A stretch of DNA of 59,253 bases from a virus (lineage: Duplodnaviria > Caudoviricetes). The translations under genes were made by a program, and so were the position numbers. Shown one piece after another: positions 9,140-51,797 of the stretch; position 1 is the stretch's first letter; every line of letters starts with the position of its first letter. The notes beneath the pieces were generated by a model that worked only from the letters and a program-made list of their open reading frames with translations, was not told where the DNA came from and did not search any database. The DNA lies in the IMG/VR virus record IMGVR_UViG_3300013119_000886, positions 1-59,253 of that record; one strand, given 5' to 3'.

Positions 9140-10564
9140 TTATTGCTGCTGTATATTTTGTGGCAAACGTAATTTACTATAGATTATTTGGTTTTCGTAT
9201 TCCATTATATAATCTATAACTGCCTCTGACCACCCATCCACATGAACCCATTTGCCATACCCTATACCATTTTGATTACTAGCTATATTTATTAAGTAGT
9301 TATTTCTACCAAAAGCATTGGCTTTACTAGGCTCACCGCCAACTCTATTATCACAATCTTGCTCATCAGTAATAACTATAATTCTATCTGCTGTTTTTTC
9401 TTCTTCATACACATAATCCATTACTTGCTTAAGAAATATACCCCCACCACCTAATGGTGTGCATTGCGAATATATTGAATCTGACAAAGCAAACCCGCGT
9501 CTATTAGGTACTGTTGTTGTAGCGTGTATCCTTGTATTGTCATTACCTGCGGTAGCGTAAATAACTATATCTTCACAGATTTCCCTTGTAATTAAAGCCA
9601 TAGAACAAGCTACTTTAGCGCGGTCTGTCTCACTTTGCGCTGATATTGACCTGTTATACATACTGCCAGATACATCTACTATTAGAATGGTTTTGCCTAG
9701 TAACTTAGATTTATTTGATAACATTTTCAATAGTGCTTTTTCAATATACTCTTCTAGTTTCGGAGCAGCGGCAGCAGCATTCAAAAATCTAAATGGCAGT
9801 ATCATGTCACTATTCATATTTTCCAAAGCTGTAATAATTAGGTGTTTATTTACTCCCTCTTGAACCATATTTCTGAGATTTCTAATTAGTGCTAATCCAC
9901 CTAATTTATTCTCTTTTAATAATCTTTCCCATTTTATCACTTTAGGTATACCGTCATCTTTACTTAGAGCCACTTCCCAAGTATCAGGTGGTGACAGGTT
10001 GCCACTCATCAAATTAGCCCATATGTCAGATTGTTCCTTAGTTTTTGGTATAGGGTGGACTAGTCGCATTACATCCTTTAAAGTTACTTTAGCCTTACGA
10101 TTGTACTTGGCTAATTGATATTCACTAAACTTAGTAAATGCTTTAGCTAACCCCTTTTTTACTTGTGCTGATAGTGGTTGTGTATTATCATCCTTCCAGT
10201 AAATAGCTAAGAACTCACCCATCTCATCTGGTCTTTGTATAATTGCAGATAGAGTATCTTTAACTAGGCCTTTATAAGTATTTAATCTAGCCATTTCCCT
10301 CACTATAAGTAGTGGTACATGTCGTAGTTTCATTTTAGTGCGAGCTTCTATAGCTATAATAGATACTTTTAGCGGGTCAACTTCTGGTATTAGCCTAGCA
10401 ATTCTCTCTGCAATAGTTTCTCCGTCTTCATAAAATTCTTTTTCCCACAATAGACAACTCATCACCGATCGTCTTAATTGTAACTCTGGAGTTATATGAG
10501 CTGCTTTAGCGCCTTGATGTGTGTATACAGGCTCAAGGTTGCGAGGTTTATTTAATTTTGCCAT
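9140..10564 (-). CDS. rsr: Ro60/Rsr ortholog (TROVE + vWA domain RNA-binding protein)
   Basis: LRRSVMSCLLWEKEFYEDG, QRPDEM, YQLAKYNR, PDTWEVALS, ALIRNLRNM, LPFRF, vWA MIDAS DVSGSM and IVITDEQ; start MAKLNK after AAGGA. Confidence 0.95.
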   Translation of the reverse strand: MAKLNKPRNLEPVYTHQGAKAAHITPELQLRRSVMSCLLWEKEFYEDGETIAERIARLIPEVDPLKVSIIAIEARTKMKLRHVPLLIVREMARLNTYKGLVKDTLSAIIQRPDEMGEFLAIYWKDDNTQPLSAQVKKGLAKAFTKFSEYQLAKYNRKAKVTLKDVMRLVHPIPKTKEQSDIWANLMSGNLSPPDTWEVALSKDDGIPKVIKWERLLKENKLGGLALIRNLRNMVQEGVNKHLIITALENMNSDMILPFRFLNAAAAAPKLEEYIEKALLKMLSNKSKLLGKTILIVDVSGSMYNRSISAQSETDRAKVACSMALITREICEDIVIYATAGNDNTRIHATTTVPNRRGFALSDSIYSQCTPLGGGGIFLKQVMDYVYEEEKTADRIIVITDEQDCDNRVGGEPSKANAFGRNNYLINIASNQNGIGYGKWVHVDGWSEAVIDYIMEYENQIIYSKLRLPQNIQQQ

Positions 10565-10610
10565 CGTTATTTTTCCTTTATTGATATTTACTATACTTTT
10601 AATTATAAAA

Positions 10611-10696
10611 ATAGCCACTGAAGAAAAAGGTAATTACAGAATGTTATTACATTGTAAGTGTAAGAAGTAACTGTAATCAATACTATCAGCGGCTAT
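10611..10696 (-). ncRNA. Y-RNA-like ncRNA candidate, copy A
   Basis: ATAGCCGCTGA/TCAGTGGCTAT terminal stem (G-U sets the strand), GATTACAG/CTGTAATT inner stem, and loop motifs shared with copy B; immediately upstream of ro60. Confidence 0.7.
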
Positions 10697-16664: not shown

Positions 16665-17192
16665 TTATTCCTCCATCATTTTATAACCCAGTAAAGCTAA
16701 CGACGCCATGTGATACCATGATTCAACTTTAATTTTAGTGTTTTCGTTTTTGTCAGAAAATGTATCTTTTAATATTCTAGATATACACTTTCCCAGACTA
16801 GAGTGTTGATATATTTGATGTTGTGCTATTGCCAACAAATCGCTGAAATCGTTTTTAATTCTACGTAGAACTTCAATTTGAGATTTTGCACCATATCGTT
16901 TACATTTTTCATCCAGCTCACTAAGCACACCATGCAATTCAGTAAACCACTTATCTGAATTACCATAAAGAATCATTATAGCTTGCACACTATAACCAGC
17001 AATATCTAACAAGGTGTCTTTTATTGATTCATTTACACTGCTGTCTTTTGTAAATAGATTTTCAATTCTGTTGATTTTATCATTCACTCTAATAATTATG
17101 CCTACTTCACCAAATATTAGCAGGTTGTCATTGCCATAATCATTATGTTTAGATATTAAGAGTGACTGCAATGTTGTAACGGCTTTATTCAT
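16665..17192 (-). CDS. DUF1599-like nucleotide-modification-associated protein
   Basis: KHNDYG...IRVNDKINRIENL...ESIKDTLLDIAGY. Confidence 0.75.
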   Translation of the reverse strand: MNKAVTTLQSLLISKHNDYGNDNLLIFGEVGIIIRVNDKINRIENLFTKDSSVNESIKDTLLDIAGYSVQAIMILYGNSDKWFTELHGVLSELDEKCKRYGAKSQIEVLRRIKNDFSDLLAIAQHQIYQHSSLGKCISRILKDTFSDKNENTKIKVESWYHMASLALLGYKMMEE

Positions 17193-20760: not shown

Positions 20761-22527
20761 CTAGTAATCAATCTCATTGATGAGTGGTGACGGACTGTCA
20801 AACTGCATATGAAAAGCACTGCTAATATTAACTTTGTTTCTTGCTCTAGTAATAGCTACGTAAAGCAGCCTTCTCTCTTCTTCTTTGTTGCTAGTCCTAA
20901 AATGAGGTAGTAGGTTTTTAGTAACACCTGCTACAAATACTGTGTCAGCTTCCAATCCTTTGCTTCTATGAATAGTACCAATAGTTATCCCCTCATCTTG
21001 TACTGTGCCAGTTGTACAGTTATCTAAGAACTCAGGGATAGTATCATATTGCTTGGATAACCGTTCTAGTGAATCCAAGTTCTCATAAATATCAAGTTCG
21101 TTATCAGTGTCACCATTCAACTTTTCTTTTTGTAACCACTTATCATAACCTATGCCTTCTCTTACATAAGCAATAACAGATGCCGGAGCTGTCAAACACT
21201 GGATAACACTTAAGTGCTTGAGTAGCTGTGATTGATTTTTACTCCAGTATCCAAGTTCTCTGCCATTAGCAGTGACAAAGCGTGATGATAGCATTTCATT
21301 TACTGATGTGTTATCTAATTTGCTTTCGCATTCTGATAACCACTTATTACCAAAGTATCTATTAGGCTTATTAAATATTCTTAGAAAACTTTCTTTATCA
21401 TTTTGCCTATGAGCTAAACTGACATAAGAAAGTATATCTATTATTTCACTAAAGTCAAAGAAACTTTTTCCTCCTAATACTTGATATTGAATACTAGCAC
21501 GCCTTAATGCCATTTCAATATTCAACGCATACCAATTAGTGCGATAGAGGACAAAAGTATTATTATCAAGTATATTAGCTGCAATATGTTCAGCTTCATC
21601 ATCTAGGCTGTCAAAGTGGTTGCAGTATTTAACACCATTACCATTTAGAGACGATTTACCTGTACCTTTCATTTCCAAACTTTTCCACTTGCTATTTTTG
21701 ATTAGGGAATTAGCGCTAGCAATAATAGCATCAGTAGAACGATAATTAGTTTCTAAATCAATAATCTTAATATCTGGATAACGAAGATTAATATTAACTA
21801 TCAATTCTGGACTAGCACATCTAAACTCAAAAATACATTGCTCAACGCTGGAAATTAGAAATAAGTTTCCTTGTTCTAATAACTCTATTGTTCTATGTTG
21901 AGCGACACTAGTATCATGTGCCTCATCTACTAGTATCCACTTTTTACCATATTGTTTTTGTAAACTAGGATTCTCTTCTAATAATTTATTAACCATTGGA
22001 GCAAAGTCATCAAAATCAATTAACTTCTGTTTGCTCTTTTCACTTTCGTAAATGTCCCATACTTCATCTAAATCTTTATGACCTGTAGTATCTTTTTCTA
22101 ACCCTTTAGCTCTACCAATAGCAAGCGCAACTGTTCCTGTGTCAACATCGGAATCTGTTAATCCTGACTGTTCTATTGCTTGTTTCAATGCAATTTTTCT
22201 TTTAGTATTTGACATAACTGTGAATGGACTTAATTTCCGATTATATTTCCATAACTCTTTTTGCAATATTGCTAATTGGTAACTATGAATAGTTCTAAAA
22301 TCAACTTCATCAGCAGTATCACCAGCTCTTTTCTTCATTTCATTAGCAGCATCTTTGGTAAAGGTTAAACAAAGAATACTATTAGGGTCTTCACCATCTT
22401 GTACTAGCTGTTTAACTCTTTCAACTAGGGTCACCGTTTTTCCACTGCCAGCCCCGGCCCTAATTGAATACCTGCCCTCTTTTAGATTTACTATTGCTGT
22501 TTGTCTTTCATCAAGCTCTATATTCAT
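20761..22527 (-). CDS. UvrD/PcrA-like SF1 helicase
   Basis: AGAGSGKT, LTFT, LVDEAHD, NYRS, VLYRTN, TIHRSKGLE and EERRLLYVAITRAR. Confidence 0.95.
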   Translation of the reverse strand: MNIELDERQTAIVNLKEGRYSIRAGAGSGKTVTLVERVKQLVQDGEDPNSILCLTFTKDAANEMKKRAGDTADEVDFRTIHSYQLAILQKELWKYNRKLSPFTVMSNTKRKIALKQAIEQSGLTDSDVDTGTVALAIGRAKGLEKDTTGHKDLDEVWDIYESEKSKQKLIDFDDFAPMVNKLLEENPSLQKQYGKKWILVDEAHDTSVAQHRTIELLEQGNLFLISSVEQCIFEFRCASPELIVNINLRYPDIKIIDLETNYRSTDAIIASANSLIKNSKWKSLEMKGTGKSSLNGNGVKYCNHFDSLDDEAEHIAANILDNNTFVLYRTNWYALNIEMALRRASIQYQVLGGKSFFDFSEIIDILSYVSLAHRQNDKESFLRIFNKPNRYFGNKWLSECESKLDNTSVNEMLSSRFVTANGRELGYWSKNQSQLLKHLSVIQCLTAPASVIAYVREGIGYDKWLQKEKLNGDTDNELDIYENLDSLERLSKQYDTIPEFLDNCTTGTVQDEGITIGTIHRSKGLEADTVFVAGVTKNLLPHFRTSNKEEERRLLYVAITRARNKVNISSAFHMQFDSPSPLINEIDY

Positions 22528-25822: not shown

Positions 25823-25903
25823 TACTCGCTATCACTAGTATAACTATTATAATTACACTAGTGATTTCGTCTTCTATCGCTGAGAAGACTCATCAGGCTA
25901 GTA
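25823..25903 (-). ncRNA. Hammerhead ribozyme, type I (canonical core)
   Basis: TACTAGC-CTGATGA-GTCTTCT(cagcgat)AGAAGAC-GAAA-TCACTAGTGTAATTA(taa)TAGTTATACTAGTGA-TA/GCGAGTA; predicted cut 25830/25829. Confidence 0.9.
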
Positions 25904-26056
25904 CTATTTCCATAATTTCGCCTACTAAATTTTCTAAAACTCTGACCCTTTCCTCTTGTAAAGTCCTCTAATTTCGATTTTAAGGCACTAAGTTTATAAT
26001 TTAGGTATATATCTATACTATATGCTCAACTTTTCATTGTGGTTGACGTGGGGTGT

Positions 26057-26986
26057 TCAGAATGGCGATGAGAAATCTGTCCTTAACTTATCTTTTGCTT
26101 TTGCTTTTGTGATAGATTTAAGAAAACCTGAGTTTAACTCTGGGTGTGGAGATTCTCTTATACTCAGTAACTTTTCATTATACTTTCCAGTACACACATC
26201 ACCAAATTCACACCAACGCCTGTACTCATTACAGGCGTCAGGAGCTCTGTGAAAATAGTTTCTATCACGACAATAATTGATATGACTGACTATTTCACCA
26301 ATATCAGCCATTATAGAAGCGACTTCCGCTTCACTTCTAGGTATTTCAAGGAAAGTAAAATACTCAGCTAAGTTATCAGATACATGGTTACTTGCTCTTT
26401 CCCAATATTCTTGCTTGGTCTCCGGTTGCCTCTTTAATCGCTGTTGTAATCCTACTGTTTTGATATAGTTAATTAGAATACCGCCAACATCATAACCATT
26501 CTCTCTAGCCATGTGGATATACATGTTACTCTGGATAGCTTTTTCATACTTTTCTGGTTGTTTCAAATGAAATGAACTGCTTTTATGCTCTACTATCCAC
26601 AGTTTACCATTATAATCAGCTATAGCATCACATTTGCCAGCATAAATAGTGCTACCTGCTGTAACAGATAGCTCTTTCTCTATCTCTATTACTTTATCTA
26701 AAGTAGGTAGTAATTGCTGCTGTTCAGCAAAATCTTTACCTTCTAACAAAACTATAGCATGCTGTATAATGTCTTCATTGTACTCTGATTGACGTAATAC
26801 TTTGCTATAGTCTTCACCATTTAACATTGCTGCTAATCCATCATGAATTGCTTGCCCTAATAGCAGGGCGTTACTGGGTTGAAAGAACAATGGCGCTTTT
26901 TCTTTATCTGCACATAGTTCATTCTCATAGTAATAATATGCAGGGCATCTACAGTATCTTCTTAAAGCGGTACTAGTGTATATCAT
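26057..26986 (-). CDS. PD-(D/E)XK nuclease (RecB/Cas4-like)
   Basis: CRCP...GQAIH...EIEKEL...GKCDAI...IVEHKS...QSNMY...C..C...C. Confidence 0.85.
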   Translation of the reverse strand: MIYTSTALRRYCRCPAYYYYENELCADKEKAPLFFQPSNALLLGQAIHDGLAAMLNGEDYSKVLRQSEYNEDIIQHAIVLLEGKDFAEQQQLLPTLDKVIEIEKELSVTAGSTIYAGKCDAIADYNGKLWIVEHKSSSFHLKQPEKYEKAIQSNMYIHMARENGYDVGGILINYIKTVGLQQRLKRQPETKQEYWERASNHVSDNLAEYFTFLEIPRSEAEVASIMADIGEIVSHINYCRDRNYFHRAPDACNEYRRWCEFGDVCTGKYNEKLLSIRESPHPELNSGFLKSITKAKAKDKLRTDFSSPF

Positions 26987-27225
26987 AAGTCAATACCTTC
27001 ACTTTCTCTACCCTGGAGTTCGCTGTTTATTAGTTCTACAATACCTTCAAGGATAGGAATTATATCAGCTTCTTCACGCTGCATATTTTTTAATAAGTCA
27101 TCTCTAACTAATATTAACGTTTTTTTGGTGTATAATTCTATTAGCCCCAAGCTCCTATAAATATTATCTAGCATTACCCCAGCACCAAAATAGTCTCTAT
27201 TATTCTGTGCATTATTACTGGACAT
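26983..27225 (-). CDS. Hypothetical protein
   Basis: Start moved to MSSNN (GGAGG SD). Confidence 0.55.
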   Translation of the reverse strand: MSSNNAQNNRDYFGAGVMLDNIYRSLGLIELYTKKTLILVRDDLLKNMQREEADIIPILEGIVELINSELQGRESEGIDL

Positions 27226-27246
27226 ACTAACCTCCGTTATTTTATT

Positions 27247-27335
27247 ATACTGCAACTAGTTATCACTACTAATATTGCTACTAATAGCATGGATTAAGAT
27301 AACTAGTTTCTGCTTTTGGCTTTTTCAAGCAGTAT
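27247..27335 (-). ncRNA. Variant hammerhead ribozyme candidate (U3-A8 core), copy 1
   Basis: ATACTGC-TTGAAAA-A GC(caaaa)GC A-GAAA-CTAGTTATC[ttaatccat]GCTATTAGTA(gcaa)TATTAGTAGT GATAACTAG-TT/GCAGTAT. Confidence 0.7.
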
Positions 27336-27708
27336 TAACTATTATTTTTATTTTGTGAGAAACAATAGTTTTGATTTCTTTGTCTATGTTTGTAGTGTGA
27401 ATACAACTGTTAGCAATAATGTCCACTGTTGCCATTTTGCCAACTAATGCTTTATTTAGCTTTTTTGCTACTGCCTTAGCGTTTTTACCATCGAACCTGT
27501 TAGCAAATCTATCTTGGGTTATTTTCAATATTGAGCAACATGCTTTTTGTAACTGCTCAATCATCCAGTTATAATTGAGGTTGAAGGGTTGAAACAAATT
27601 ATCTGCAAAGTAAATATTAACCGTGCTTGCTGCACAACCAACGCCCTTGATTTCTAATTGTTGCTCGCCTAACTTGTAGGCAAGGAAGGTGATTTCCTTT
27701 GTTTGCAT
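27325..27708 (-). CDS. Hypothetical protein
   Basis: AGGAG SD; the stop codon lies within the ribozyme core. Confidence 0.6.
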   Translation of the reverse strand: MQTKEITFLAYKLGEQQLEIKGVGCAASTVNIYFADNLFQPFNLNYNWMIEQLQKACCSILKITQDRFANRFDGKNAKAVAKKLNKALVGKMATVDIIANSCIHTTNIDKEIKTIVSHKIKIIVNTA

Positions 27709-27818
27709 TTAATACTCCTAGCGTTTCCTTTCATGCTTAAGTTCTAACTCTCTAATTAAACGCTTACTATTGCGCTATGTTTACTATAATATATTAGATT
27801 ATAGTAACTTCCATCTAT

Positions 27819-28262
27819 TTACTTCAGCCAAGATTTGGACGCTTTACCTTTAAGTAAGGCTAGATGGTTTTGAATCTGGCGTTCTGGAGTAGATGTATTC
27901 ATATACTGCCTCACTTTTTTTATTTCTTCTACGGTGTCATTTACCCACTCTTGCATACATGCTGTTGATGGCATTTCCCTCACTTGTGTTACTTCTTGAT
28001 AGCGGTAATAGCGCGGGCTTGTTTTATTAAGTTGATATTGGCTACGTTCATTATCATAAGGTACATAACCATTGACACTATAGGCACAACCTTCGTCATA
28101 AGTTTCAAACACTAAACTTTTGTCTATCTCTACAGTTTTTGTAAGTTGCTTTTGTTGATTTACCCTGCCAGATTCACAACGGATTTCAACTAAATAGTCG
28201 TCACCGTCCCAGTTATTGCCAGTAGTATCATTGCAGATTATTACTAGTGACAATAACTTCAC
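27819..28262 (-). CDS. Hypothetical protein
   Basis: Co-oriented 147 aa ORF. Confidence 0.6.
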   Translation of the reverse strand: MKLLSLVIICNDTTGNNWDGDDYLVEIRCESGRVNQQKQLTKTVEIDKSLVFETYDEGCAYSVNGYVPYDNERSQYQLNKTSPRYYRYQEVTQVREMPSTACMQEWVNDTVEEIKKVRQYMNTSTPERQIQNHLALLKGKASKSWLK

Positions 28263-28290
28263 TCTTTATCTGGTTATTAGTGGAGTTGCA

Positions 28291-28494
28291 CTATTCTTCT
28301 TTTACTGATGGATGCCTAATTGTATCCCTACTTATCATATTGCGAGCCTGATATTTACGATGACGTTTCCAGCATTTGTCATCAATATTACTAGGGTAAA
28401 TATCATCCCACTCAGTAGGTACTTGAGTTCTTTTTATACTACTATCTATATAACTTAATTGTAAGGTTCTTCGTGTTTTGGGTTTGCGGTGCAT
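28291..28494 (-). CDS. Small basic hypothetical protein
   Basis: PTEWDDI...KCWKRHRKYQ. Confidence 0.55.
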   Translation of the reverse strand: MHRKPKTRRTLQLSYIDSSIKRTQVPTEWDDIYPSNIDDKCWKRHRKYQARNMISRDTIRHPSVKEE

Positions 28495-28496
28495 GA

Positions 28497-28877
28497 TTAC
28501 ATGTACAATTCTATTACAAAAGGGTTCTTACTTATGTAGTTATCCCATCCGCCTACTGTTGTATCAGATGACCGCCACCTTACTGGGAATATCCTATCCT
28601 GAGTTACTGTACGGCTAGTTTTGATTACTGTAATAGCCGAACCATACTTTGAATATACTTCACCTTCTTTGATACTGCAAGGTGCTGCTCTGAACGTAAA
28701 GCTACTGTTAGTATGGTTATAGCTAACAGGACTGCCATTAAAACCAAATGATTGTTGTTTGGCTTCACACCAACTTACAAATCTGCCAGTTTGACAGTCC
28801 CTAACTCTTGGAGTGTAACCAAGGTTTATACCATTGGCTACTACTCGACTATTCGTTGTACTCATTACTCTATCCAT
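28497..28877 (-). CDS. Hypothetical protein
   Basis: AGGAG SD; VRDCQTGRFV motif shared with ORF 30869-31063. Confidence 0.6.
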   Translation of the reverse strand: MDRVMSTTNSRVVANGINLGYTPRVRDCQTGRFVSWCEAKQQSFGFNGSPVSYNHTNSSFTFRAAPCSIKEGEVYSKYGSAITVIKTSRTVTQDRIFPVRWRSSDTTVGGWDNYISKNPFVIELYM

Positions 28878-28916
28878 TTTTAACTCCTGTTTATAGTCCG
28901 TAGACTTTAAATTAAA

Positions 28917-28959
28917 AGCCTTATGTGAGATTTGAACTCACTCAACCTGCTATAAGGCT
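28917..28959 (-). ncRNA. tRNA-like mini-element (acceptor stem + T-arm only)
   Basis: GCCTTAT-AGCAGGTTGA-GTGAG TTCAAAT CTCAC-ATAAGGC. Confidence 0.7.
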
Positions 28960-29009
28960 ATTGGGCTATTAAGTATAACCGTCCATTTAAGACTAAAGTC
29001 ATCATTTTA

Positions 29010-29210
29010 CTAAATACCCCAATATTGTTGTCTGCTTTTTATTATTCTTATAATGTCTTCATTGGGGTAACAGTCCCTTAGCAATTGTAAAATCACTTCT
29101 ATGTCTTTAGCTAAGATATTTTGACACTGACTTTCACTAACTAATTGTTCATAACGACTGTTAGTGTAATCACTCGATTTTGGTGGTAATTTACTTTGAT
29201 TTATACTCAT
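29010..29210 (-). CDS. Hypothetical protein
   Basis: GGGAG SD. Confidence 0.55.
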   Translation of the reverse strand: MSINQSKLPPKSSDYTNSRYEQLVSESQCQNILAKDIEVILQLLRDCYPNEDIIRIIKSRQQYWGI

Positions 29211-29232
29211 TCTTAACTCCCATATTAGATTT

Positions 29233-29322
29233 TGTTGCGACTATTTGCCACTAATTATATTACTATAATTAGCATGGATAATAAAGGCAAATAGTTTCTG
29301 GTTTAACCTTTGTCAAGCAACA
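29233..29322 (-). ncRNA. Variant hammerhead ribozyme candidate (U3-A8 core), copy 2
   Basis: TGTTGC-TTGACAA-A GGT(taa)ACC A-GAAA-CTATTTGCC[tttattatccat]GCTAATTATA(gtaa)TATAATTAGT GGCAAATAG-TC/GCAACA. Confidence 0.75.
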
Positions 29323-29556
29323 TTAAAACGGTATGGTATGCCAATCTAAATCTAATTGCTCAAACTCTAACTTCTCTAGTAAATTGGAGTGGTAAACAAT
29401 CTGCTCGTCTTCTAGTTCCTCTTTTAATGCTTTTAATTTTTTGCATGCTACACTATATTGCCCATGTAGTAACTCATACTCCACCGCTCGGATTTCAGGC
29501 AATATCTCAAAACTGTAAACCTTATTCTGTACTTCTTCGTCGAATATAACTGACAT
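29323..29556 (-). CDS. Hypothetical protein
   Basis: AAGGA SD; acidic protein. Confidence 0.55.
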   Translation of the reverse strand: MSVIFDEEVQNKVYSFEILPEIRAVEYELLHGQYSVACKKLKALKEELEDEQIVYHSNLLEKLEFEQLDLDWHTIPF

Positions 29557-29578
29557 TTCCTTTAATCTCCTTTTGGTT

Positions 29579-29619
29579 ACCCTGCACTACATATTTAAGT
29601 GGAATAGTGCAGGGTTTTT
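29579..29619. terminator. Intergenic hairpin, terminator-like
   Basis: ACCCTGCACTA/TAGTGCAGGGT with a T-run on the + strand. Confidence 0.5.
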
Positions 29620-29620
29620 C

Positions 29621-29812
29621 TTACCTGTACCTTAGTACACTAAACAACACTTGCCTCTGCTGTTCTGTTATTTTGTTCAGTAACATATACTGTTCAGCAG
29701 GTGGTAATGCTCGGAACTTTCTATTATACTTCTTTGCAATATCCCTTTCACTCTTGCCCATCACTTTTACTAATCTTGTAGGTGTGGAGTGCCTAGCTAT
29801 TCCTTTTGTCAT
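29621..29812 (-). CDS. Small basic hypothetical protein
   Basis: AGGAG SD; overlaps the upstream gene. Confidence 0.5.
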   Translation of the reverse strand: MTKGIARHSTPTRLVKVMGKSERDIAKKYNRKFRALPPAEQYMLLNKITEQQRQVLFSVLRYR

Positions 29813-30230
29813 TGAGAATCTCCTTTACTGCTTTGTTTACTAGATCTAACTTGCTAATAGACTCGTCATATTCTGTTAATTCAAGTTTCATTTGCTCTAT
29901 TATAGTCGCAAGCGCTTCGCTAAATCCTGCCATAATGCTCCTAATAAGAGGAGCATTATTTTTAACGTTACCCCAATATGCAGCGTAGGTAGCAGGGGCA
30001 TAGTCGCAATGGGGTTCTGCATCATTTAACAACCACCACTCGCCGCAGTCGCAAATCAAATTTACAGATTGCGCGTGTTCTTCATGCTCACAAACATAAG
30101 CAGTGAATATCCCTTGATGCAAATGAGTTACTTCATCGAGTAACTCAAATAACTCTATAAAACTGTTGCTAATATGACTTTGCTTTTCTGCTAATTGTTT
30201 GGATACCATCATTATATCTAACATGTTCAT
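29793..30230 (-). CDS. Hypothetical protein
   Basis: AGGAAGG SD; directly downstream of a hammerhead. Confidence 0.6.
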   Translation of the reverse strand: MNMLDIMMVSKQLAEKQSHISNSFIELFELLDEVTHLHQGIFTAYVCEHEEHAQSVNLICDCGEWWLLNDAEPHCDYAPATYAAYWGNVKNNAPLIRSIMAGFSEALATIIEQMKLELTEYDESISKLDLVNKAVKEILNDKRNS

Positions 30231-30250
30231 TTTCCTTCCTTAGTTATTTT

Positions 30251-30320
30251 GTTGCGACTGCTCTAGTATAATAATCACTAGAGCAGTTTCGTCTTAATTT
30301 GCAAAGACTCTTCAGGCAAC
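30251..30320 (-). ncRNA. Hammerhead ribozyme, type I (canonical core, GUC triplet)
   Basis: GTTGC-CTGAAGA-GTCTT(tgcaaatt)AAGAC-GAAA-CTGCTCTAGT(gattattat)ACTAGAGCAG-TC/GCAAC; predicted cut 30256/30255. Confidence 0.95.
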
Positions 30321-30584
30321 TTAGGTGAAGTATCTAGTCATCTTTTACTACTAATTTCTTAATCATTATTTTTTAATCTCCTATGTATTGATTCTAGCCA
30401 AAATATAACACTGGCTATAGCGCAAAATAAACCTTCTTCTTTGTTGCCACTTGACATCAGCACAATGCCTGACAGAAGTGGCAGAATGTTCACTAATTGT
30501 GCTTTCATTACTAACTCCTTTCTTGTTATAGTGAACGCTAGTACTAGCTATGGTAACTAGTACTAGCCGCACGGTTTTCACGCC

Positions 30585-30872
30585 CTAATCACTATCTTCT
30601 TCTTGCTCTAATTGCTCTACTCTCTCATTTAAATCAGCAATGTAATCATCAATAGGTATATCACTAGTCCCTACCATTGTTTCTAACTGTGCTATCCTGT
30701 ACTCTAAGGTTCTTAAGCATTCTTCGGTATCAGACATAGGATTATTAGCACAACTAGCTAATAAGATTACTATTGCAGAAACCCAGATTATTATGAGATT
30801 AGGTTTCCTAACTACACGCCAGGCATTCTGATTATAGTCAAATGTTACTTCTTCTACTCTGCTTCTTCTCAT
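30585..30872 (-). CDS. Putative lipoprotein with coiled coil
   Basis: Hydrophobic stretch followed by an LASC lipobox. Confidence 0.55.
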   Translation of the reverse strand: MRRSRVEEVTFDYNQNAWRVVRKPNLIIIWVSAIVILLASCANNPMSDTEECLRTLEYRIAQLETMVGTSDIPIDDYIADLNERVEQLEQEEDSD

Positions 30873-31063
30873 TTATACACCTCTATTGTTAAATCAGGAC
30901 TCATTGGATTAACTCTAGTTAGATAACAGGTTGCTAAAGAATGGTTGATAAATTTGCCAGTTCGCTTATCTCTCACTACTATTCTTGAACCGGCTAAAGT
31001 TCTACCGTTAAACTTTATGCTATTGCTATTTGCTTCTTGGACTTTCTTCCATGTCTTATACAT
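30869..31063 (-). CDS. Hypothetical protein
   Basis: GAGG SD; VRDKRTGKFI motif. Confidence 0.55.
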   Translation of the reverse strand: MYKTWKKVQEANSNSIKFNGRTLAGSRIVVRDKRTGKFINHSLATCYLTRVNPMSPDLTIEVYK

Positions 31064-31086
31064 TGATAATACCTCTGTAGTTTATT

Positions 31087-31143
31087 TTACTCACCTGCCT
31101 TACGGCTTACCCTAGCGCCTCCAGCGAGTAATTATTGCTAGGA
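31087..31143 (-). ncRNA. Pseudoknotted structured RNA candidate
   Basis: TCCTAGC/GCTAGGG crossed with TTACTCGCT/GGTGAGTAA, plus a GCC(GTAA)GGC GNRA hairpin. Confidence 0.55.
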
Positions 31144-31164
31144 TTGAGGGAAACTAGTTCCCCC

Positions 31165-31359
31165 TTATAATGGTATATCCAAAAACTCTTTGATTGCTTT
31201 GTCACACTCTTCTTTTATGAACGCTTTAAACATTTCTTCCCCTTGCCATGAATAATCTTTCACTGCGACCATTTTCTCTGCAAACATAAGAGCAAATACT
31301 AAATGGTCACATTCTTTATTGCGATCTAATGCTTTTTCCATGCGTTGTTCTAATGTCAT
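31165..31359 (-). CDS. Hypothetical protein
   Basis: AGGAG SD. Confidence 0.55.
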   Translation of the reverse strand: MTLEQRMEKALDRNKECDHLVFALMFAEKMVAVKDYSWQGEEMFKAFIKEECDKAIKEFLDIPL

Positions 31360-31587
31360 TGCTATCTCCTTTTGCTAACCCTGCCAAGAGTAATAACTAC
31401 TCTCTGCTTTTACTAGCACAACATTAAAGGTCAGGTAGCAGTTTTGAGACTTGCCTAGGTCTACTTTACTAATAGATTTTACTAATCAAGAATGTTGTTA
31501 TCAAAGTAGCTATTACAGATAAAGCAAAGGTGAACTCGCCACCTAACGCTATAGTTATTATTATGTCATTGAGTAAATCTATTGTTC

Positions 31588-31803
31588 TCATTGATACTCT
31601 CCTTCTAGTATTCTTGCTATACCTTCTTTTGTAGTTTCAGACAGTGATAGGTAGTAAGCGTTATTGCTATCACAAATTAGGTATGCTACTGAATCTTCAA
31701 TTAGATCTGCTTTCACCTTACAATTACTACAATCAATTCTGCCTTTAAATGGAAACAACTTGCTGCTTTGGGTTATTTTGCCATAACCTATTTTACAATA
31801 CAT
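31588..31803 (-). CDS. Hypothetical protein
   Basis: AGGAGG SD directly after the twister ribozyme. Confidence 0.55.
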   Translation of the reverse strand: MYCKIGYGKITQSSKLFPFKGRIDCSNCKVKADLIEDSVAYLICDSNNAYYLSLSETTKEGIARILEGEYQ

Positions 31804-31821
31804 TGCTAACCTCCTATTGAT

Positions 31822-31889
31822 TTATCCACTCACTAATTTATAAGGGCTTGTGACCTTCTATTACTCTGGTAATAGGCTAGTTTAGAAAG
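31822..31889 (-). ncRNA. Twister ribozyme, type P1
   Basis: TC-TAA-ACTA-GC-CTATTAC(caga)GTAATAG-AAGG TCACAAGC CCTT-ATAAAT-TAGT-GA-GTG-GA. P2, P3, P4, the CAC/GTG and GC/GC pseudoknots and the UAA/GA catalytic loop are all present; P1 is short. Predicted cut 31884/31883. Confidence 0.85.
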
Positions 31890-43127: not shown

Positions 43128-43336
43128 ATTGAAAGATGAATTAACAAAGTTGTTATTGGAAGAGATTGGGTATAGTGAAGAGAGATGTGAATCGTGCTGC
43201 CATTATTTTGTAGATGAGGGCACTATTGATAGGGATTTTGTAGATAGTTGTGGGCAGTTTAGGCAATTAGTATTTAGAGTAGATAAAAAGGGGATATGCA
43301 AGAATCATAGTAGAAAGTAAAGATGTATAGCGTTTT

Positions 43337-43408
43337 TCTGGCGTAGCTCAATGGTAGAGCGTGTGGTTGTTAACCACGAGGTTGCTGGTTCGAGCCCAGC
43401 CGCCAGAG
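43337..43408 (+). tRNA. tRNA-Asn (GTT), CCA not encoded
   Basis: TCTGGCG/CGCCAGA acceptor, GCTC/GAGC D-arm, TGTGG TTGTTAA CCACG anticodon arm, GCTGG TTCGAGC CCAGC T-arm. Confidence 0.95.
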
Positions 43409-43698
43409 TTTAATTAACAGGATACAAGATGTGGTCACATAATATTATAGACAAGTATTCACATATACCAGAACCAACCAAATCAGCATTAAAGAAATAT
43501 TTATTTGCATATTCGCTATGGATTTTATAGTTCGATTACCTATCATAATTACTTGGCACTTGATAATTTGTGTTATATTTGCTATAGTAGGAGTAATCTC
43601 ATTGATAATGTTTACTCGGTGTTTGTTTAGTAAGGAGAAGTAAAGTGACAATTGTTTATTGCATCAAAACCTGATATTGTTAAAGCAAAGGAGTTATT

Positions 43699-44757
43699 AT
43701 GAGCGATAGAGCTTTAGCTACAATAAGAAGAATATCTGATGTTCAACCAATCGAGGGTGCAGACAGGATAGAAGTGGCAACTGTGGATGGGTGGCAAGTA
43801 GTAGTTAAGAAGGGTGAATTTAGTGTTGGTGATTTAGGTGTATACTTTGAGATTGATTCTTTCCTGCCTGTTGATGAGCGTTATGAGTTTTTAAGAAAGA
43901 GTTCTTACAAAAAGTTTAGTGATGGCAGAGAAGGATTTAGAATTAAAACTATAAAGTTAAAGAAGCAAGTTAGTCAAGGATTGTTGTTGCCCTTAGCGGA
44001 ATTTCCTGAGATTAATCCTTTACTTAGTGACAATGTAGATATAACAAAAGTATTAGGAGTTAAGTTATATGAACCACCTATGCCTGTTCATATGGGCGGC
44101 GATCCTAAATCAACAAGGCCGTGGTTTATACCTAAGACTGACCAAGAGAGAATACAAAATAATCTAAAGTATTGGGAAGAATATAAAGATACTAATTTCG
44201 AGATTTCAGAAAAAGTCGATGGAACGAGTTGCACGTGGTTCTATAAAGATGGTGAATTTGGTATTTGTTCTAGGAATTTATTATATGGAGAAGAGAGTGA
44301 TAGTATCTATGCAGTAGTAGCCAGGGATGTTGAGATTAGTGAGGTGCTAGAGCAATTATGTAAGGATAATGGTGAAAACTTGGCATTGCAAGGTGAAATA
44401 ATTGGGCCTAGTATACAGGGTAATCCTTACAAGTTAGATAAGCCTCAGTTTTTCTTATTTGATATTTATGATATAGACAATCAGAAATATTTAATTGCTG
44501 GTGAAAGGCTTAAAATTGTGGAAAGTTTAAATAACTTACTTTGCTTGCATCACGTTCCTGTAATTGATATTCAGTCACAAATATTTAGTACAATTAGTAA
44601 CATTGATGGTTTATTAGTTTTTGCTGAGGGCAAATCCTTATTGAATAGTGATGTAGAACGTGAGGGTATAGTATTTAAGGCTTTAGAAGCTGATGATTAT
44701 GGTGAGATTCTGTCATTTAAAGTTATTAGTAACCAGTACTTATTAAAAAGCAAGTGA
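43699..44757 (+). CDS. ATP-dependent RNA ligase, DRB0094 family
   Basis: N-terminal PIEGADRIEVA..GWQVVV..YFEIDS domain; motif I EKVDG, LQGEIIG, FDI, REGIVFK and SFKVISNQYLL. Confidence 0.92.
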   Translation: MSDRALATIRRISDVQPIEGADRIEVATVDGWQVVVKKGEFSVGDLGVYFEIDSFLPVDERYEFLRKSSYKKFSDGREGFRIKTIKLKKQVSQGLLLPLAEFPEINPLLSDNVDITKVLGVKLYEPPMPVHMGGDPKSTRPWFIPKTDQERIQNNLKYWEEYKDTNFEISEKVDGTSCTWFYKDGEFGICSRNLLYGEESDSIYAVVARDVEISEVLEQLCKDNGENLALQGEIIGPSIQGNPYKLDKPQFFLFDIYDIDNQKYLIAGERLKIVESLNNLLCLHHVPVIDIQSQIFSTISNIDGLLVFAEGKSLLNSDVEREGIVFKALEADDYGEILSFKVISNQYLLKSK

Positions 44758-48393: not shown

Positions 48394-48789
48394 ATGGATA
48401 ATATCAAGATTAAATTAGACAGAAATATGGTTACCAATCATGTTGATATTTATGTAGTAGCACAAGATTTGAGTGGTCATATATCCTATTTAGTATGTGC
48501 GGATAATAAATTACTTGAATATATGGAAATGGCTGAAGGTTGTAGTTACCAAGATATAGAGCCTTTGATGTGTATTAGTGAAGAATCGTTTCAGCCTTTT
48601 ATGCTGGCATTGATAAGAGAATATAAATTGCAGTTTGAGGGTGCTGATAATGAGAAAGCAGCTTTGCAAGCTGTGTGTGATAGCTTAGAAGATGAAGTGG
48701 ATTTTTATAGAAGTATGTTTAAGGATTTTGCTGGTAATTTAAGTAAAGGAAATTTGCACGTAACTGTTACTGGTGCTGATGATAAATGA
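48394..48789 (+). CDS. Hypothetical protein
   Basis: Overlaps the TerL start (ATGA). Confidence 0.55.
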   Translation: MDNIKIKLDRNMVTNHVDIYVVAQDLSGHISYLVCADNKLLEYMEMAEGCSYQDIEPLMCISEESFQPFMLALIREYKLQFEGADNEKAALQAVCDSLEDEVDFYRSMFKDFAGNLSKGNLHVTVTGADDK

Positions 48790-51700
48790 GAAAAATACTG
48801 CAAGTATATAATGAAGTAAGAAATAGCAATGTACCGGAAGCGGAAAAATCACTGATAATAAAAACTATTAAACAGGAATATAGGCAATCTATAAAGGAAT
48901 TAGCTACTACTAAATTCTGGGCTTTTTGTGAATATTGTCTTAAAGATGAGCAAACTGGTGAGCATGTAGAATTGCAAGACTTTCATGTAGAATGGTGTAA
49001 TCTGGTTCAAGCCACAAAGAAACTTGTGTTATTCAGTAGTATTGAGTCAGGGAAATGCGTAGATGGTAATTCTTTAGTAGCTTTATCTGATGGCACTAGA
49101 AAATTAGCTAGTGAAATAGTTATTGGTGATGAAGTATTATCAATGGATAGTAGATGGAAGATACAACCAACTAAAGTTGTTGCCACTGAGTGCAATGGTC
49201 ATAAAGACTTATTAAACATTACTACCCAATCTGGAAGAAATATCAAGGTAACTGCAAACCATAAGTTTTATATATTGGGTGAGAAGTGGATAGCAACTAG
49301 TAGATTAAAAATAGGGGATAGGATTGCGACACCAAGATTGTTGCCAGTAAAGAATGGCAAAGCTAATATTGATAATCGTATTGAACTGTTAGGTTATTTA
49401 ATAGCTGAGGGTCACTTGAATAGTTCCACTCCATCAATAACAACTGCTGATGATGATATTCTAAATCGTGTTAGGTTTTTAGTAGAGAGTCTCGATTTAA
49501 AATTATCTAATAGTGATGGCAGGTATACTTACAGGATATGCAAAAAAGGTAAAAAGAACCCTACTTATAAAAGCTCTATTGCCGACTGGTTAGAGGAAAT
49601 AGGCTTATTAGGGAAAAAGTCACATACGAAACTGATTCCTGAATGTGTTTTTAGTGCAAGTAATGATGAAAAGGCTTTATTTTTATCTGCATTATTTTCT
49701 GGTGATGGTCATGTTAGAAATGGTAAGCCTCGTTTAGTATCTTATACTTCTGTTAGTAAACGGTTAATAAATGATGTTCAATCATTATTACTTCATTTTG
49801 GCATATTATCTCAGATACACTCAAGATATACCAAGTATGACAATAGCGGCAAAGAGTTTTTGTCTTATAGATTAATGATCGGGAATAAAGAAAGTTTATT
49901 GAACTTTAAAAATACTGTTAAGTATTTATATCCTATTCACAAAACAGAAAGAATGGAGGCTTGGAGTTGGGATAGAATTTCTTGCGGTAACTTGGATGGT
50001 ATACCTGTTGCATGGAAAAAATATCAATATTGGAATGATTTTAGGCACGAAATATTATATGGGAAGAACCCTGCGATTATGAAGTATGAGGTTACTTCTA
50101 GAGAGAGAGTATATCAGATAGCTAATAACGAGATAAATGATTCTCAGATAGTAATGGATTTTGTTAATCCTAAAGTGTTAATGGATTTAGCTACGTCAGA
50201 TATTTTCTGGGATAAAATTGTATCTATAGAAAATGCTGGCGATGATTTAACTTATGATATTCAAGTAGAAGACAACCATAATTTTATAGTAAATAATTTT
50301 ATTACTCACAATTCTTCCATTCTATCAATAGGTTATCCCTTGTTTGTTTTAGGTAATAATGCGTCATTACGTGCTGCTATAGTGTCAAATGTAGCTACAG
50401 CAGCAAGTAAGTTTCTAGGTGCAATCAAGGAATATATATTGCGAGATAAAGATGTGCAAGCTGTATTTCCTGATTTAAAGCCAATGAAAGACAGGGTCAA
50501 TCCTAATAGAAACGAGAAATGGACTGATAGCGCTATAATTGTTGAGCGTCCCTTTATTTCTAAAGATTTCAGTCTTCAAACTTTAGGTGTTAAAGGTCCT
50601 TTATTAAGTTCTAGGTTGAACTTGCTTATACTAGACGATGTGTTGGACAAAAAAAATACTGACAGTGAAACAGAAAACACAAAAATAATTGAGTGGCATG
50701 ATGCTATTGCTAAGGGGCGGCTAGTAACTGATGCACAAGAAATAGTTGTTGGTACAGCGTGGGGCCCGTCGGACATGATGCACTATTTATCAGACAAAGA
50801 AGAATATACTACTGTTAAGTATTCAGTAGAGCAAGAAGACGTGGATGCTGGTACTCACAAGTTAGTTTATTGGCCGGACAGGCATCCTAGAGAAAAATTA
50901 GATGCTGAAAGAAGATATAATCCTGATGAGTATAATAGGCAAAGAAGAAGTAGAGTATCATCTAGAGATACCCAAGAATTTCACGATTATGTAGAGAATT
51001 ATATAGACAAATCAGTAGAAGTTGGTGAAGACTGGATTAAGTTTACAGGTATAGATTTATCATCGTCTAAGCGACCTGGTGACGTTATTTGTGACGTGGC
51101 AGTTTCTCCTGATTTGCAAAAAAGAGTAGTTGTTGATATTGAGTACGGTCAATGGAAAGCAAATATAAGAGCAGAGCATATAGGTGCTCATTATGATGTA
51201 CACAACCCAAGAATAGTTAGTGTAGAAGATAATGCTTTACAAAGTGATAACTTGGAATGGATGGAAGTGGTGGGTTATAAGCATTTACCATTACAAGGGT
51301 TTACAACTACTGGTGCTAATAAAGATGGTTTAGTGATGAACAACGCTATTGAATTACGCAATGGTTTATGGCGTTTTAAAGTTTTGCATGATTTTGATGA
51401 GATATGTAAATGTCATTGGTGTAGATTTATTAAAGAAGTGAAGAATTATCCTGATTACAAAACCTCAGATGGATTTATGGCGTGGTTATTAGCAAGTGAA
51501 GCAGCTAGGAGTATAGCAAGCAGAGAACCTAGATTTAGAATATTAGATTTAAACCAAGATATTGCAACAGCAGCGTTGCTGGCTAATAAGCCAGTATTTA
51601 CATTAGCTGATTATAGCATAAATAATCGCTTAACTTCACCAGATTTTATACCACCACCTGATTATGCTGATATAGTAAAAGAGATTATTCGTAATGATGG

Positions 51701-51797
51701 CAATGTTGTGGAATTTGATATATATGATAGTGAAGATGTTTTATACGTACATGCTGAAATGAATAGGGTTATAGGGATACTAAATGGAGAATCTTAG
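48786..51797 (+). CDS. terL: Terminase large subunit (intein-containing)
   Basis: Walker A ESGK|S split by the intein, Walker B LLILDD, VVGTAW and nuclease GIDLS; followed by the portal. Confidence 0.9.
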   Translation: MRKILQVYNEVRNSNVPEAEKSLIIKTIKQEYRQSIKELATTKFWAFCEYCLKDEQTGEHVELQDFHVEWCNLVQATKKLVLFSSIESGKCVDGNSLVALSDGTRKLASEIVIGDEVLSMDSRWKIQPTKVVATECNGHKDLLNITTQSGRNIKVTANHKFYILGEKWIATSRLKIGDRIATPRLLPVKNGKANIDNRIELLGYLIAEGHLNSSTPSITTADDDILNRVRFLVESLDLKLSNSDGRYTYRICKKGKKNPTYKSSIADWLEEIGLLGKKSHTKLIPECVFSASNDEKALFLSALFSGDGHVRNGKPRLVSYTSVSKRLINDVQSLLLHFGILSQIHSRYTKYDNSGKEFLSYRLMIGNKESLLNFKNTVKYLYPIHKTERMEAWSWDRISCGNLDGIPVAWKKYQYWNDFRHEILYGKNPAIMKYEVTSRERVYQIANNEINDSQIVMDFVNPKVLMDLATSDIFWDKIVSIENAGDDLTYDIQVEDNHNFIVNNFITHNSSILSIGYPLFVLGNNASLRAAIVSNVATAASKFLGAIKEYILRDKDVQAVFPDLKPMKDRVNPNRNEKWTDSAIIVERPFISKDFSLQTLGVKGPLLSSRLNLLILDDVLDKKNTDSETENTKIIEWHDAIAKGRLVTDAQEIVVGTAWGPSDMMHYLSDKEEYTTVKYSVEQEDVDAGTHKLVYWPDRHPREKLDAERRYNPDEYNRQRRSRVSSRDTQEFHDYVENYIDKSVEVGEDWIKFTGIDLSSSKRPGDVICDVAVSPDLQKRVVVDIEYGQWKANIRAEHIGAHYDVHNPRIVSVEDNALQSDNLEWMEVVGYKHLPLQGFTTTGANKDGLVMNNAIELRNGLWRFKVLHDFDEICKCHWCRFIKEVKNYPDYKTSDGFMAWLLASEAARSIASREPRFRILDLNQDIATAALLANKPVFTLADYSINNRLTSPDFIPPPDYADIVKEIIRNDGNVVEFDIYDSEDVLYVHAEMNRVIGILNGES
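49056..50312 (+). mobile_element. Intein with LAGLIDADG endonuclease in TerL (419 aa)
   Basis: CVDGNS...TANHKF...LLGYLIAEG...FLSALFSGDG...TYDIQV...FITHN|S. Confidence 0.95.

Follow-up and report, generated by a model that had tools for sequence, protein, structure and literature searches.

Bacterial self-cleaving ribozymes co-occur, and twister is among those proposed to process messenger RNAs (mRNAs) (PMC6765202; this review, PMC3088659 and PMC4209133 are cited here as far as excerpts of their text go). Among the closest described systems are the clustered hammerheads of prophages, which flank genes and cleave in ~2-kilobase (kb) transcripts; an mRNA-processing role was proposed and partly shown for them (PMC3088659) and is repeated in the review (PMC6765202). 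The present analysis concerns IMGVR_UViG_3300013119_000886, an IMG/VR virus record of 59,253 bases with a completeness estimate of 56%, which was analysed at its full length (the window). Two copies of a variant hammerhead-like element, V1 and V2, lie in it on the minus strand, which is the coding strand of the surrounding genes, and both are genuine RNAs under selection and of hammerhead descent, set in a phage operon that ribozymes punctuate. They are probably two paralogous, strongly diverged type I hammerheads within a set of at least five self-cleaving ribozymes, and are predicted to self-cleave. The locus resembles the prophage clusters in having several ribozymes on the same strand between individual genes or blocks of a few genes, an arrangement for which the processing of polycistronic mRNA was proposed; unlike those clusters, as the excerpts of PMC3088659 describe them, it holds at least three kinds of ribozyme in 6.1 kb, and the variant is duplicated as a cassette of ribozyme, leader and Shine-Dalgarno (SD) sequence.

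The two elements were delimited by fold, alignment, descriptor and covariation, and consist of the following parts (J, junction strand; bp, base pairs; nt, nucleotides):

V1, variant hammerhead-like element: 27248..27334, minus strand
V2, variant hammerhead-like element: 29233..29322, minus strand
V1 stem I, 6 bp: 27334-27329 with 27253-27248, minus strand
V2 stem I, 6 bp: 29322-29317 with 29238-29233, minus strand
V1 J1/2, UUGAAAAA: 27328-27321, minus strand
V2 J1/2, UUGACAAA: 29316-29309, minus strand
V1 stem-loop II: 27320-27312, minus strand
V2 stem-loop II: 29308-29300, minus strand
V1 J2/3, AGAA: 27311-27308, minus strand
V2 J2/3, AGAA: 29299-29296, minus strand
V1 stem IIIa, 10 bp: 27307-27298 with 27264-27255, minus strand
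V2 stem IIIa, 10 bp: 29295-29286 with 29249-29240, minus strand
V1 5' bulge, 9 nt, 3' part AUCCAU: 27297-27289, minus strand
V2 5' bulge, 12 nt, 3' part AUCCAU: 29285-29274, minus strand
V1 stem-loop IIIb, 10 bp with GCAA cap: 27288-27265, minus strand
V2 stem-loop IIIb, 10 bp with GUAA cap: 29273-29250, minus strand
V1 unpaired U17: 27254, predicted cut between 27254 and 27253
V2 unpaired C17: 29239, predicted cut between 29239 and 29238
V1 leader: 27223..27253, minus strand, from the predicted 5'-OH G 27253, 28 nt up to ATG 27225-27223, SD GGAGG 27235-27231
V2 leader: 29208..29238, minus strand, from G 29238, 28 nt up to ATG 29210-29208, SD GGGAG 29221-29217

The strand order in both copies is that of a hammerhead (stem I, a 7-nt core, stem II, GAA, stem III, an unpaired base and stem I again), and the invariant U4, G5 and A6, A9, and G12, A13 and A14 are all present, together with A15.1-U16.1 and a non-G base at position 17 (U in V1, C in V2). 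C3 and G8 are replaced by U3 and A8 in both, the tertiary pair being kept in compensatory form; apart from this pair and positions 10.1 and 11.1, every strictly conserved hammerhead base is retained. A first-pass annotation of the window had pointed to a core of UUGANAA instead of CUGANGA, a mini stem II flanked by As, and a stem III with a GNRA cap and a bulge ending in AUCCAU, and all of these recur in both copies. More specifically, the J1/2 consensus is UUGA(A/C)AAA, and stem II has 2 bp, a 5-nt A-rich loop and an A flanking each side (a third pair being possible in V2). As that annotation also had it, the UGA stop codon of the upstream gene falls in the core of the first copy: the stop of the open reading frame (ORF) 27325..27708, at 27327-27325, constitutes U4 G5 A6 of V1. 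The TAA of ORF 29323..29556 ends one base ahead of V2. On minus-strand RNA across the window, no exact complement of ATCCATGC was found.

Folding and comparison of the two copies agree with this architecture. The minimum free energy (MFE) folds of the minus strand reach -27.4 kcal/mol in V1 and -27.5 kcal/mol in V2 (z -5.46 and -5.40), a stability that 0 of 200 shuffles attain, and recover stems I, IIIa and IIIb in both elements and stem II in V1 only, the stem II strand of V2 being pulled into another helix. Folds of the plus strand are less stable (z -2.91 for V1 and -3.31 for V2), and the four G-U pairs, three in V1 and one in V2, are compatible with the minus strand only. In the two-sequence alignment, the 28 pairs give 56 of 56 cells with standard pairs and include 8 that are changed on both sides, so the stems do diverge and still pair, as had been noted before; 3 of 500 shuffles match these values, and sliding the partner strand by 1-3 columns leaves 0 double changes. 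The copies differ by 23 substitutions, 17 in paired columns and 6 at unpaired positions, namely N7, position 17, the variable base of the GNRA loop, two bases in loop II and one in the bulge. Just 2 of 13 junction bases differ, and these are N7 and N17, which are free in hammerheads, while 17 of the 56 paired positions (30%) are changed with pairing intact throughout. Therefore, change in the junction is confined to sites where a hammerhead allows it, against a drift of 30% in the paired positions.

A hand-written descriptor was used to gauge how readily such a match arises by chance. It demanded the UUGANAA core, one unpaired base on either side of stem II, GAAA, an A-U pair closing stem III, a base other than G at position 17, and minimum stem lengths of 4, 2 and 4 pairs. 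In the 59-kb window it finds two matches, each with 10 pairs in stem III, and in ~3.5 Mb of unrelated DNA 16 matches, in which stem III never exceeds 6 pairs.

The second line of evidence is the company that V1 and V2 keep. A covariance model built from the two elements (R1) was run over the window without speed filters, and its third best match (21.9 bits, E 0.0073) and fifth best match (14.7 bits, E 0.54) are canonical hammerheads, called HH-A and HH-B here; the fourth (17084-17165) is within an ORF and is without the core words, and was dismissed as chance. A further model (R2) was built from 60 IMG/VR phage hammerheads of the family described below, and a permissive Rfam scan adds a twister:

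HH-A, canonical type I hammerhead: 30250..30321, minus strand, R2 61.0 bits, E 2.7e-19
HH-B, canonical type I hammerhead: 25824..25902, minus strand, R2 31.7 bits, E 1.1e-8
Twister, type P1: 31823..31888, minus strand, permissive Rfam scan 54.2 bits, E 2.2e-9, below the gathering score of 67.2

HH-A has the core CUGAAGA and the stem II GUCUU[UGCAAAUU]AAGAC, and its predicted cut, between 30256 and 30255, is 25 nt ahead of ATG 30230. HH-B has the core CUGAUGA and one mismatch in stem I; its predicted cut between 25830 and 25829 leaves 24 nt to ATG 25805, or 36 nt to TTG 25793. The ATG is the listed start of the ORF after HH-B and has no SD, and a GGAGG at 25803-25799 is followed by the TTG, which looks like the real start of this ORF. 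The 3' end of the twister is 19 nt ahead of ATG 31803, with an SD between, and a hairpin with a GCAA loop (about 31911-31886) precedes the twister.

A pattern taken from the stem II common to HH-A and HH-B occurs in more than 118 IMG/VR stretches, and a descriptor applied to 118 of these loci (L204-L321) yields 121 hammerheads, 97 of them distinct. This phage type I family has a nearly invariant stem-loop II, GUCUUUGARAAUUAAGAC, often occurs several times per contig, and is often followed by an SD and a start codon. The 60 hammerheads behind R2 were drawn from it, and the R2 scores of HH-A and HH-B therefore make both members of a widespread phage family. The family is like V1 and V2 in that stem I is open, the strands come in the same order, and an SD and start codon follow tens of nt downstream. 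It has C3-G8, G10.1-C11.1, a 5-bp stem II whose 8-nt loop is conserved, and a stem III that is simple and mostly 4-9 pairs long; V1 and V2 are unlike it in their U3-A8, A.A, 2-bp stem II and 10+10-bp stem III with a conserved bulge. U3-A8 does occur on the same phage scaffold, in two of four IMG/VR pattern matches inspected by eye (L413:1766-1794, type I, and L412:654-682, type III).

HH-B, V1, V2, HH-A and the twister occupy intergenic positions within 25824-31888, on the minus strand and between ORFs of that strand. All five lie 19-36 nt upstream of a start codon, each just upstream of the ribosome-binding site of its gene, and the distance from predicted cut to start codon is exactly 28 nt in both V1 and V2. 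The repeat formed by V1 and V2 comprises the ribozyme, the leader and the SD up to the ATG (27223-27338 against 29208-29326), so that both leaders are part of the repeated module and the flanking genes are excluded; the copied unit is a ribozyme-leader cassette. V2 and HH-A, ~1 kb apart, agree in stem I (GUUGC/GCAAC) and in a run of 14 bases that spans the cut site (repeat family D18). Since V2 shares stem I and this 14-nt stretch with a canonical copy in the same operon, V1 and V2 are hammerhead derivatives. The set of at least five ribozymes (two canonical hammerheads, the twister, V1 and V2) punctuates one long leftward early/replication operon, and with two ordinary hammerheads and a twister beside them, V1 and V2 are most likely places where a long phage message cuts itself into pieces.

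These observations leave little room for the view that V1 and V2 are structured RNAs unrelated to hammerheads, such as an antitermination or other regulatory element with a junction alike by chance, which we regard as very improbable. Cis elements in two copies do exist in phage early operons, put and nut sites being examples, and no hammerhead model detects V1 or V2; against that, (i) the match spans the strand order and 11 fixed core positions, with free variation exactly at N7 and N17, (ii) V2 shares sequence with the canonical hammerhead 1 kb away, (iii) the descriptor gives no comparable chance match in ~3.5 Mb and (iv) neither promoter-like sites (15 found, 15.8 expected) nor terminator-like sites (4 found, 1.9 expected, judged not enriched) are in excess, and none of either kind lies at the V1 and V2 motifs.

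Whether V1 and V2 still cleave is a separate question, and here a number of points weigh against the reading favoured above. Positions 10.1 and 11.1 are A and A in both copies and do not form the usual pair, and in 60 aligned phage relatives this pair is G-C, at least 90% conserved and nearly invariant. In published natural hammerheads, 10.1-11.1 is the most conserved pair after 15.1-16.1, and U.U is the only natural mismatch given as tolerated in the excerpts of PMC3088659. Stem I has no internal loop and loop II is the short A-rich one, and no candidate for a tertiary pairing between stems I and II is visible by eye. With R2, V2 scores only 7.6 bits (E 5.9), and V1 is not among the matches. 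The first-pass annotation had called for scoring against all Rfam hammerhead models, RAGATH variants included; at gathering scores the window yields just a tRNA and no hammerhead, and no Rfam hammerhead family matches V1 or V2 at E up to 10, whether in 3.5 kb or in 111-nt pieces, which includes the RAGATH-1 hammerhead (RF03152). Rfam recognition is a weak test, because the canonical neighbours also stay below gathering: the best Rfam matches of HH-A and HH-B are to RAGATH-1, with 26.8 and 14.4 bits (for HH-A E 0.0047, gathering 56.3). Translation is a further difficulty, as the stop codon lies in the core of V1 and abuts stem I in V2, and terminating ribosomes must therefore melt the ribozyme, so that cleavage would need to precede, or alternate with, translation. 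Furthermore, the sequencing runs containing the phage DNA include no RNA run among those listed, and the comparative sample is minimal, since the comparison comprises just two copies, both from one incomplete record.

Alternatively, V1 and V2 could be hammerhead-derived elements in which cleavage is lost or very slow and which are kept for another job at the RNA level, for example as a stable 3' structure, a protein-binding site or a signal for a host RNase III-type enzyme (a 20-bp stem III with an asymmetric bulge); in the last case intercistronic processing would be carried out by protein and not RNA. The departure of A.A and the 2-bp stem II from the near-invariant G-C of the relatives, the failure of R2 to recognise the elements, and the location of their most elaborate and conserved new feature (the 10+10-bp stem III with its AUCCAU bulge) outside the catalytic core all speak for such a role, and we presume a resemblance of stem III to the bulged RNase III sites between T7 genes. 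Nevertheless, all strictly required catalytic bases have been kept while the stems drifted, with junction changes at N7 and N17 only, and a mere hairpin or nuclease site would need neither the junction strands nor stems I and II; a non-cleaving role is accordingly rated possible but rather unlikely. It is probable that V1 and V2 still self-cleave.

Several of their departures from the canonical form have been seen in ribozymes elsewhere. U3-A8 is in print as a natural covariation, and ribozymes with it are active (PMC3088659), while ~1,300 motifs with U3-A8 were reported in Penelope-like elements (PMC4209133); the earlier remark that the C3-G8 tertiary pair tolerates this change is thus borne out by the literature. 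The natural U3-A8 hammerheads and min-hammerheads of these papers share the compensatory change with V1 and V2 and also include 2-bp stems II and U.U at 10.1/11.1, and a 2-bp stem II is common in natural hammerheads (PMC3088659). In the excerpted text of both papers there is no precedent for U3-A8 together with A.A at 10.1/11.1 and a two-part stem III, and the supplementary variant lists of PMC3088659 may hold similar sequences. Of the features singled out as unusual in the first-pass annotation, two, U3-A8 and the 2-bp stem II, are already published, as is a mismatch at 10.1/11.1 in the form of U.U; the apparent novelty lies in A.A at that position and in a stem III of two parts (AUCCAU bulge, GYAA loop). 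Its proposal of a distinct hammerhead subfamily holds as far as the hammerhead layout and bases and the canonical paralogues in the operon are concerned; as a subfamily, it comprises two paralogous copies in one record.

A more specific version of that proposal, of rather low probability, can be put forward tentatively, namely that the stem III domain defines a new subclass by replacing the contact between loops I and II and offsetting the crippled stem II, or else by binding a protein or RNA that switches cleavage on. The proposed domain would be built of two 10-bp helices, the conserved bulge ending in AUCCAU between them and a GYAA tetraloop, and in the switch version V1 and V2 may be naturally regulated hammerheads. 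The base of stem III, C15.2-G16.2 / U15.3-A16.3, is invariant in both copies. GYAA loops are said, after Costa and Michel, to prefer a helix of this type, and fold-back docking of the loop is conceivable because the base pairs correspond to that preference; a hinge without bases on the 3' strand argues against such docking.

The bulge had also been assigned a function in translation: in the uncut RNA its UCC or AUCCAU would pair with the downstream SD region, and cleavage would free the ribosome-binding site. At the level of sequence, the bulge UCC can indeed pair with the GGA of the SD, and CCAU with AUGG in V2. However, the possible pairing amounts to just 3 bp in V1 and 4 bp in V2, and the bulge-leader duplexes, at -3.4 and -5.3 kcal/mol, are equalled or bettered by 792 of 1000 (V1) and 502 of 1000 (V2) shuffled bulges. 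In pseudoknot-free partition-function folds, cleavage leaves the predicted unpaired probability of the SD unchanged, with 0.25 for V1 and 0.37 for V2 in precursor and 3' product alike. The bulges pair equally well or better with the leaders of other elements, and an SD is placed likewise at the canonical hammerheads and the twister, none of which has such a bulge. Unmasking of the ribosome-binding site was thus rejected as unsupported by the duplex tests and by the folds, pseudoknot-free as these are, and is considered highly improbable.

If, as is favoured here, the elements do cleave, V1 would be cut after U27254 and V2 after C29239, each at position 17. The upstream message would then retain the folded ribozyme body at a 3' end with a 2',3'-cyclic phosphate, and the downstream message would start at a 5'-OH, followed by a short leader with an SD of its own, whereby the flanking genes would gain separate stability and translation. 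Decay of mRNA can depend on the 5' end, and the effects on stability that we infer build on this general background.

Searches for further relatives of V1 and V2 used patterns requiring conserved letters, which diverged members would escape, and with these patterns none was found in IMG/VR, metagenome or genome collections. A loose pattern matched more than 119 IMG/VR stretches, and R1 applied to 80 of these loci gave two weak chance matches (18.8 and 18.4 bits). A strict 22-base pattern had 0 stretches in IMG/VR, 57 in metagenomes and 25 in genomes, and the single R1 match among those 82 loci (18.8 bits) lacks stem III. A bulge-free pattern retrieved 88 IMG/VR stretches with one lax descriptor match and 12 R1 matches, none above 17.7 bits; three of the R1 matches (L322, L339 and L374) were considered as relatives and set aside as coding sequence. 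Finally, R1 on 80 of the 118 canonical-hammerhead loci produced five matches, none above 17.9 bits, and the two inspected were chance.

The DNA of this uncultured marine phage was found in runs labelled marine metagenome, one of which has it within a 105-kb contig, and contigs from three runs represent the same phage only, with zero variant letters. Genes run on the minus strand from ~35 kb down to 7 kb of the window, and this block encodes a PD-(D/E)XK exonuclease, a UvrD-type helicase and DnaB. Related phages sought in IMG/VR through the exonuclease and the UvrD helicase were not found; compared with phage isolates, the portal protein and DnaB have only ~25% identity, and 4.5 kb of the window gave no blastn match to them.

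Several other features of the window also concern RNA. It encodes a Ro60/TROVE-domain protein (9140-10618, minus strand), an RNA ligase (43699-44757, plus strand; PHA02142 OB-fold plus RNA_ligase) and a tRNA-Asn (43336-43409, plus strand), which together form a gene set for RNA repair and quality control in a genome where self-cleaving RNAs abound; Rfam showed nothing resembling a Y RNA for this phage. A tRNA-like minihelix at 28917-28959 (minus strand) occupies part of the 133 nt that separate ORFs 29010..29210 and 28497..28877, in a region with a fold z of -2.26. In it, a 5-bp stem with the loop UUCAAAU, which we take to be T-arm-like from the consensus, is attached directly to an acceptor-like stem of 8 bp. 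ARAGORN called no tRNA there, and the minihelix may be another kind of processing signal (of RNase P/Z type) within the same operon. At 20810-20902 (minus strand), Rfam gives a match to n00280 ('C. difficile sRNA included into helicase gene') that is weak (38.1 bits, E 0.013), falls within the ORF of the UvrD-type helicase and therefore probably represents conservation of coding sequence. On the plus strand, a 1003-amino-acid ORF (48786-51797) just upstream of the portal gene contains an intein with a LAGLIDADG homing endonuclease (Intein_splicing, LAGLIDADG_3, Hint).

Should V1 and V2 not cleave, they would be a case of a ribozyme scaffold recruited to another purpose. If they do cleave, the hammerhead core would tolerate U3-A8 plus a purine-purine mismatch at the best-conserved stem II pair, and the peripheral stem III element would be a new way of stabilising the fold, useful both for finding hammerheads that current models miss and for ribozyme engineering. 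The locus would then be a compact natural case in which self-cleaving RNAs of three sorts cut a single phage operon, each forming a movable cassette with the leader and ribosome-binding site to which it is fused, and it would bear on the role of ribozymes in phages.

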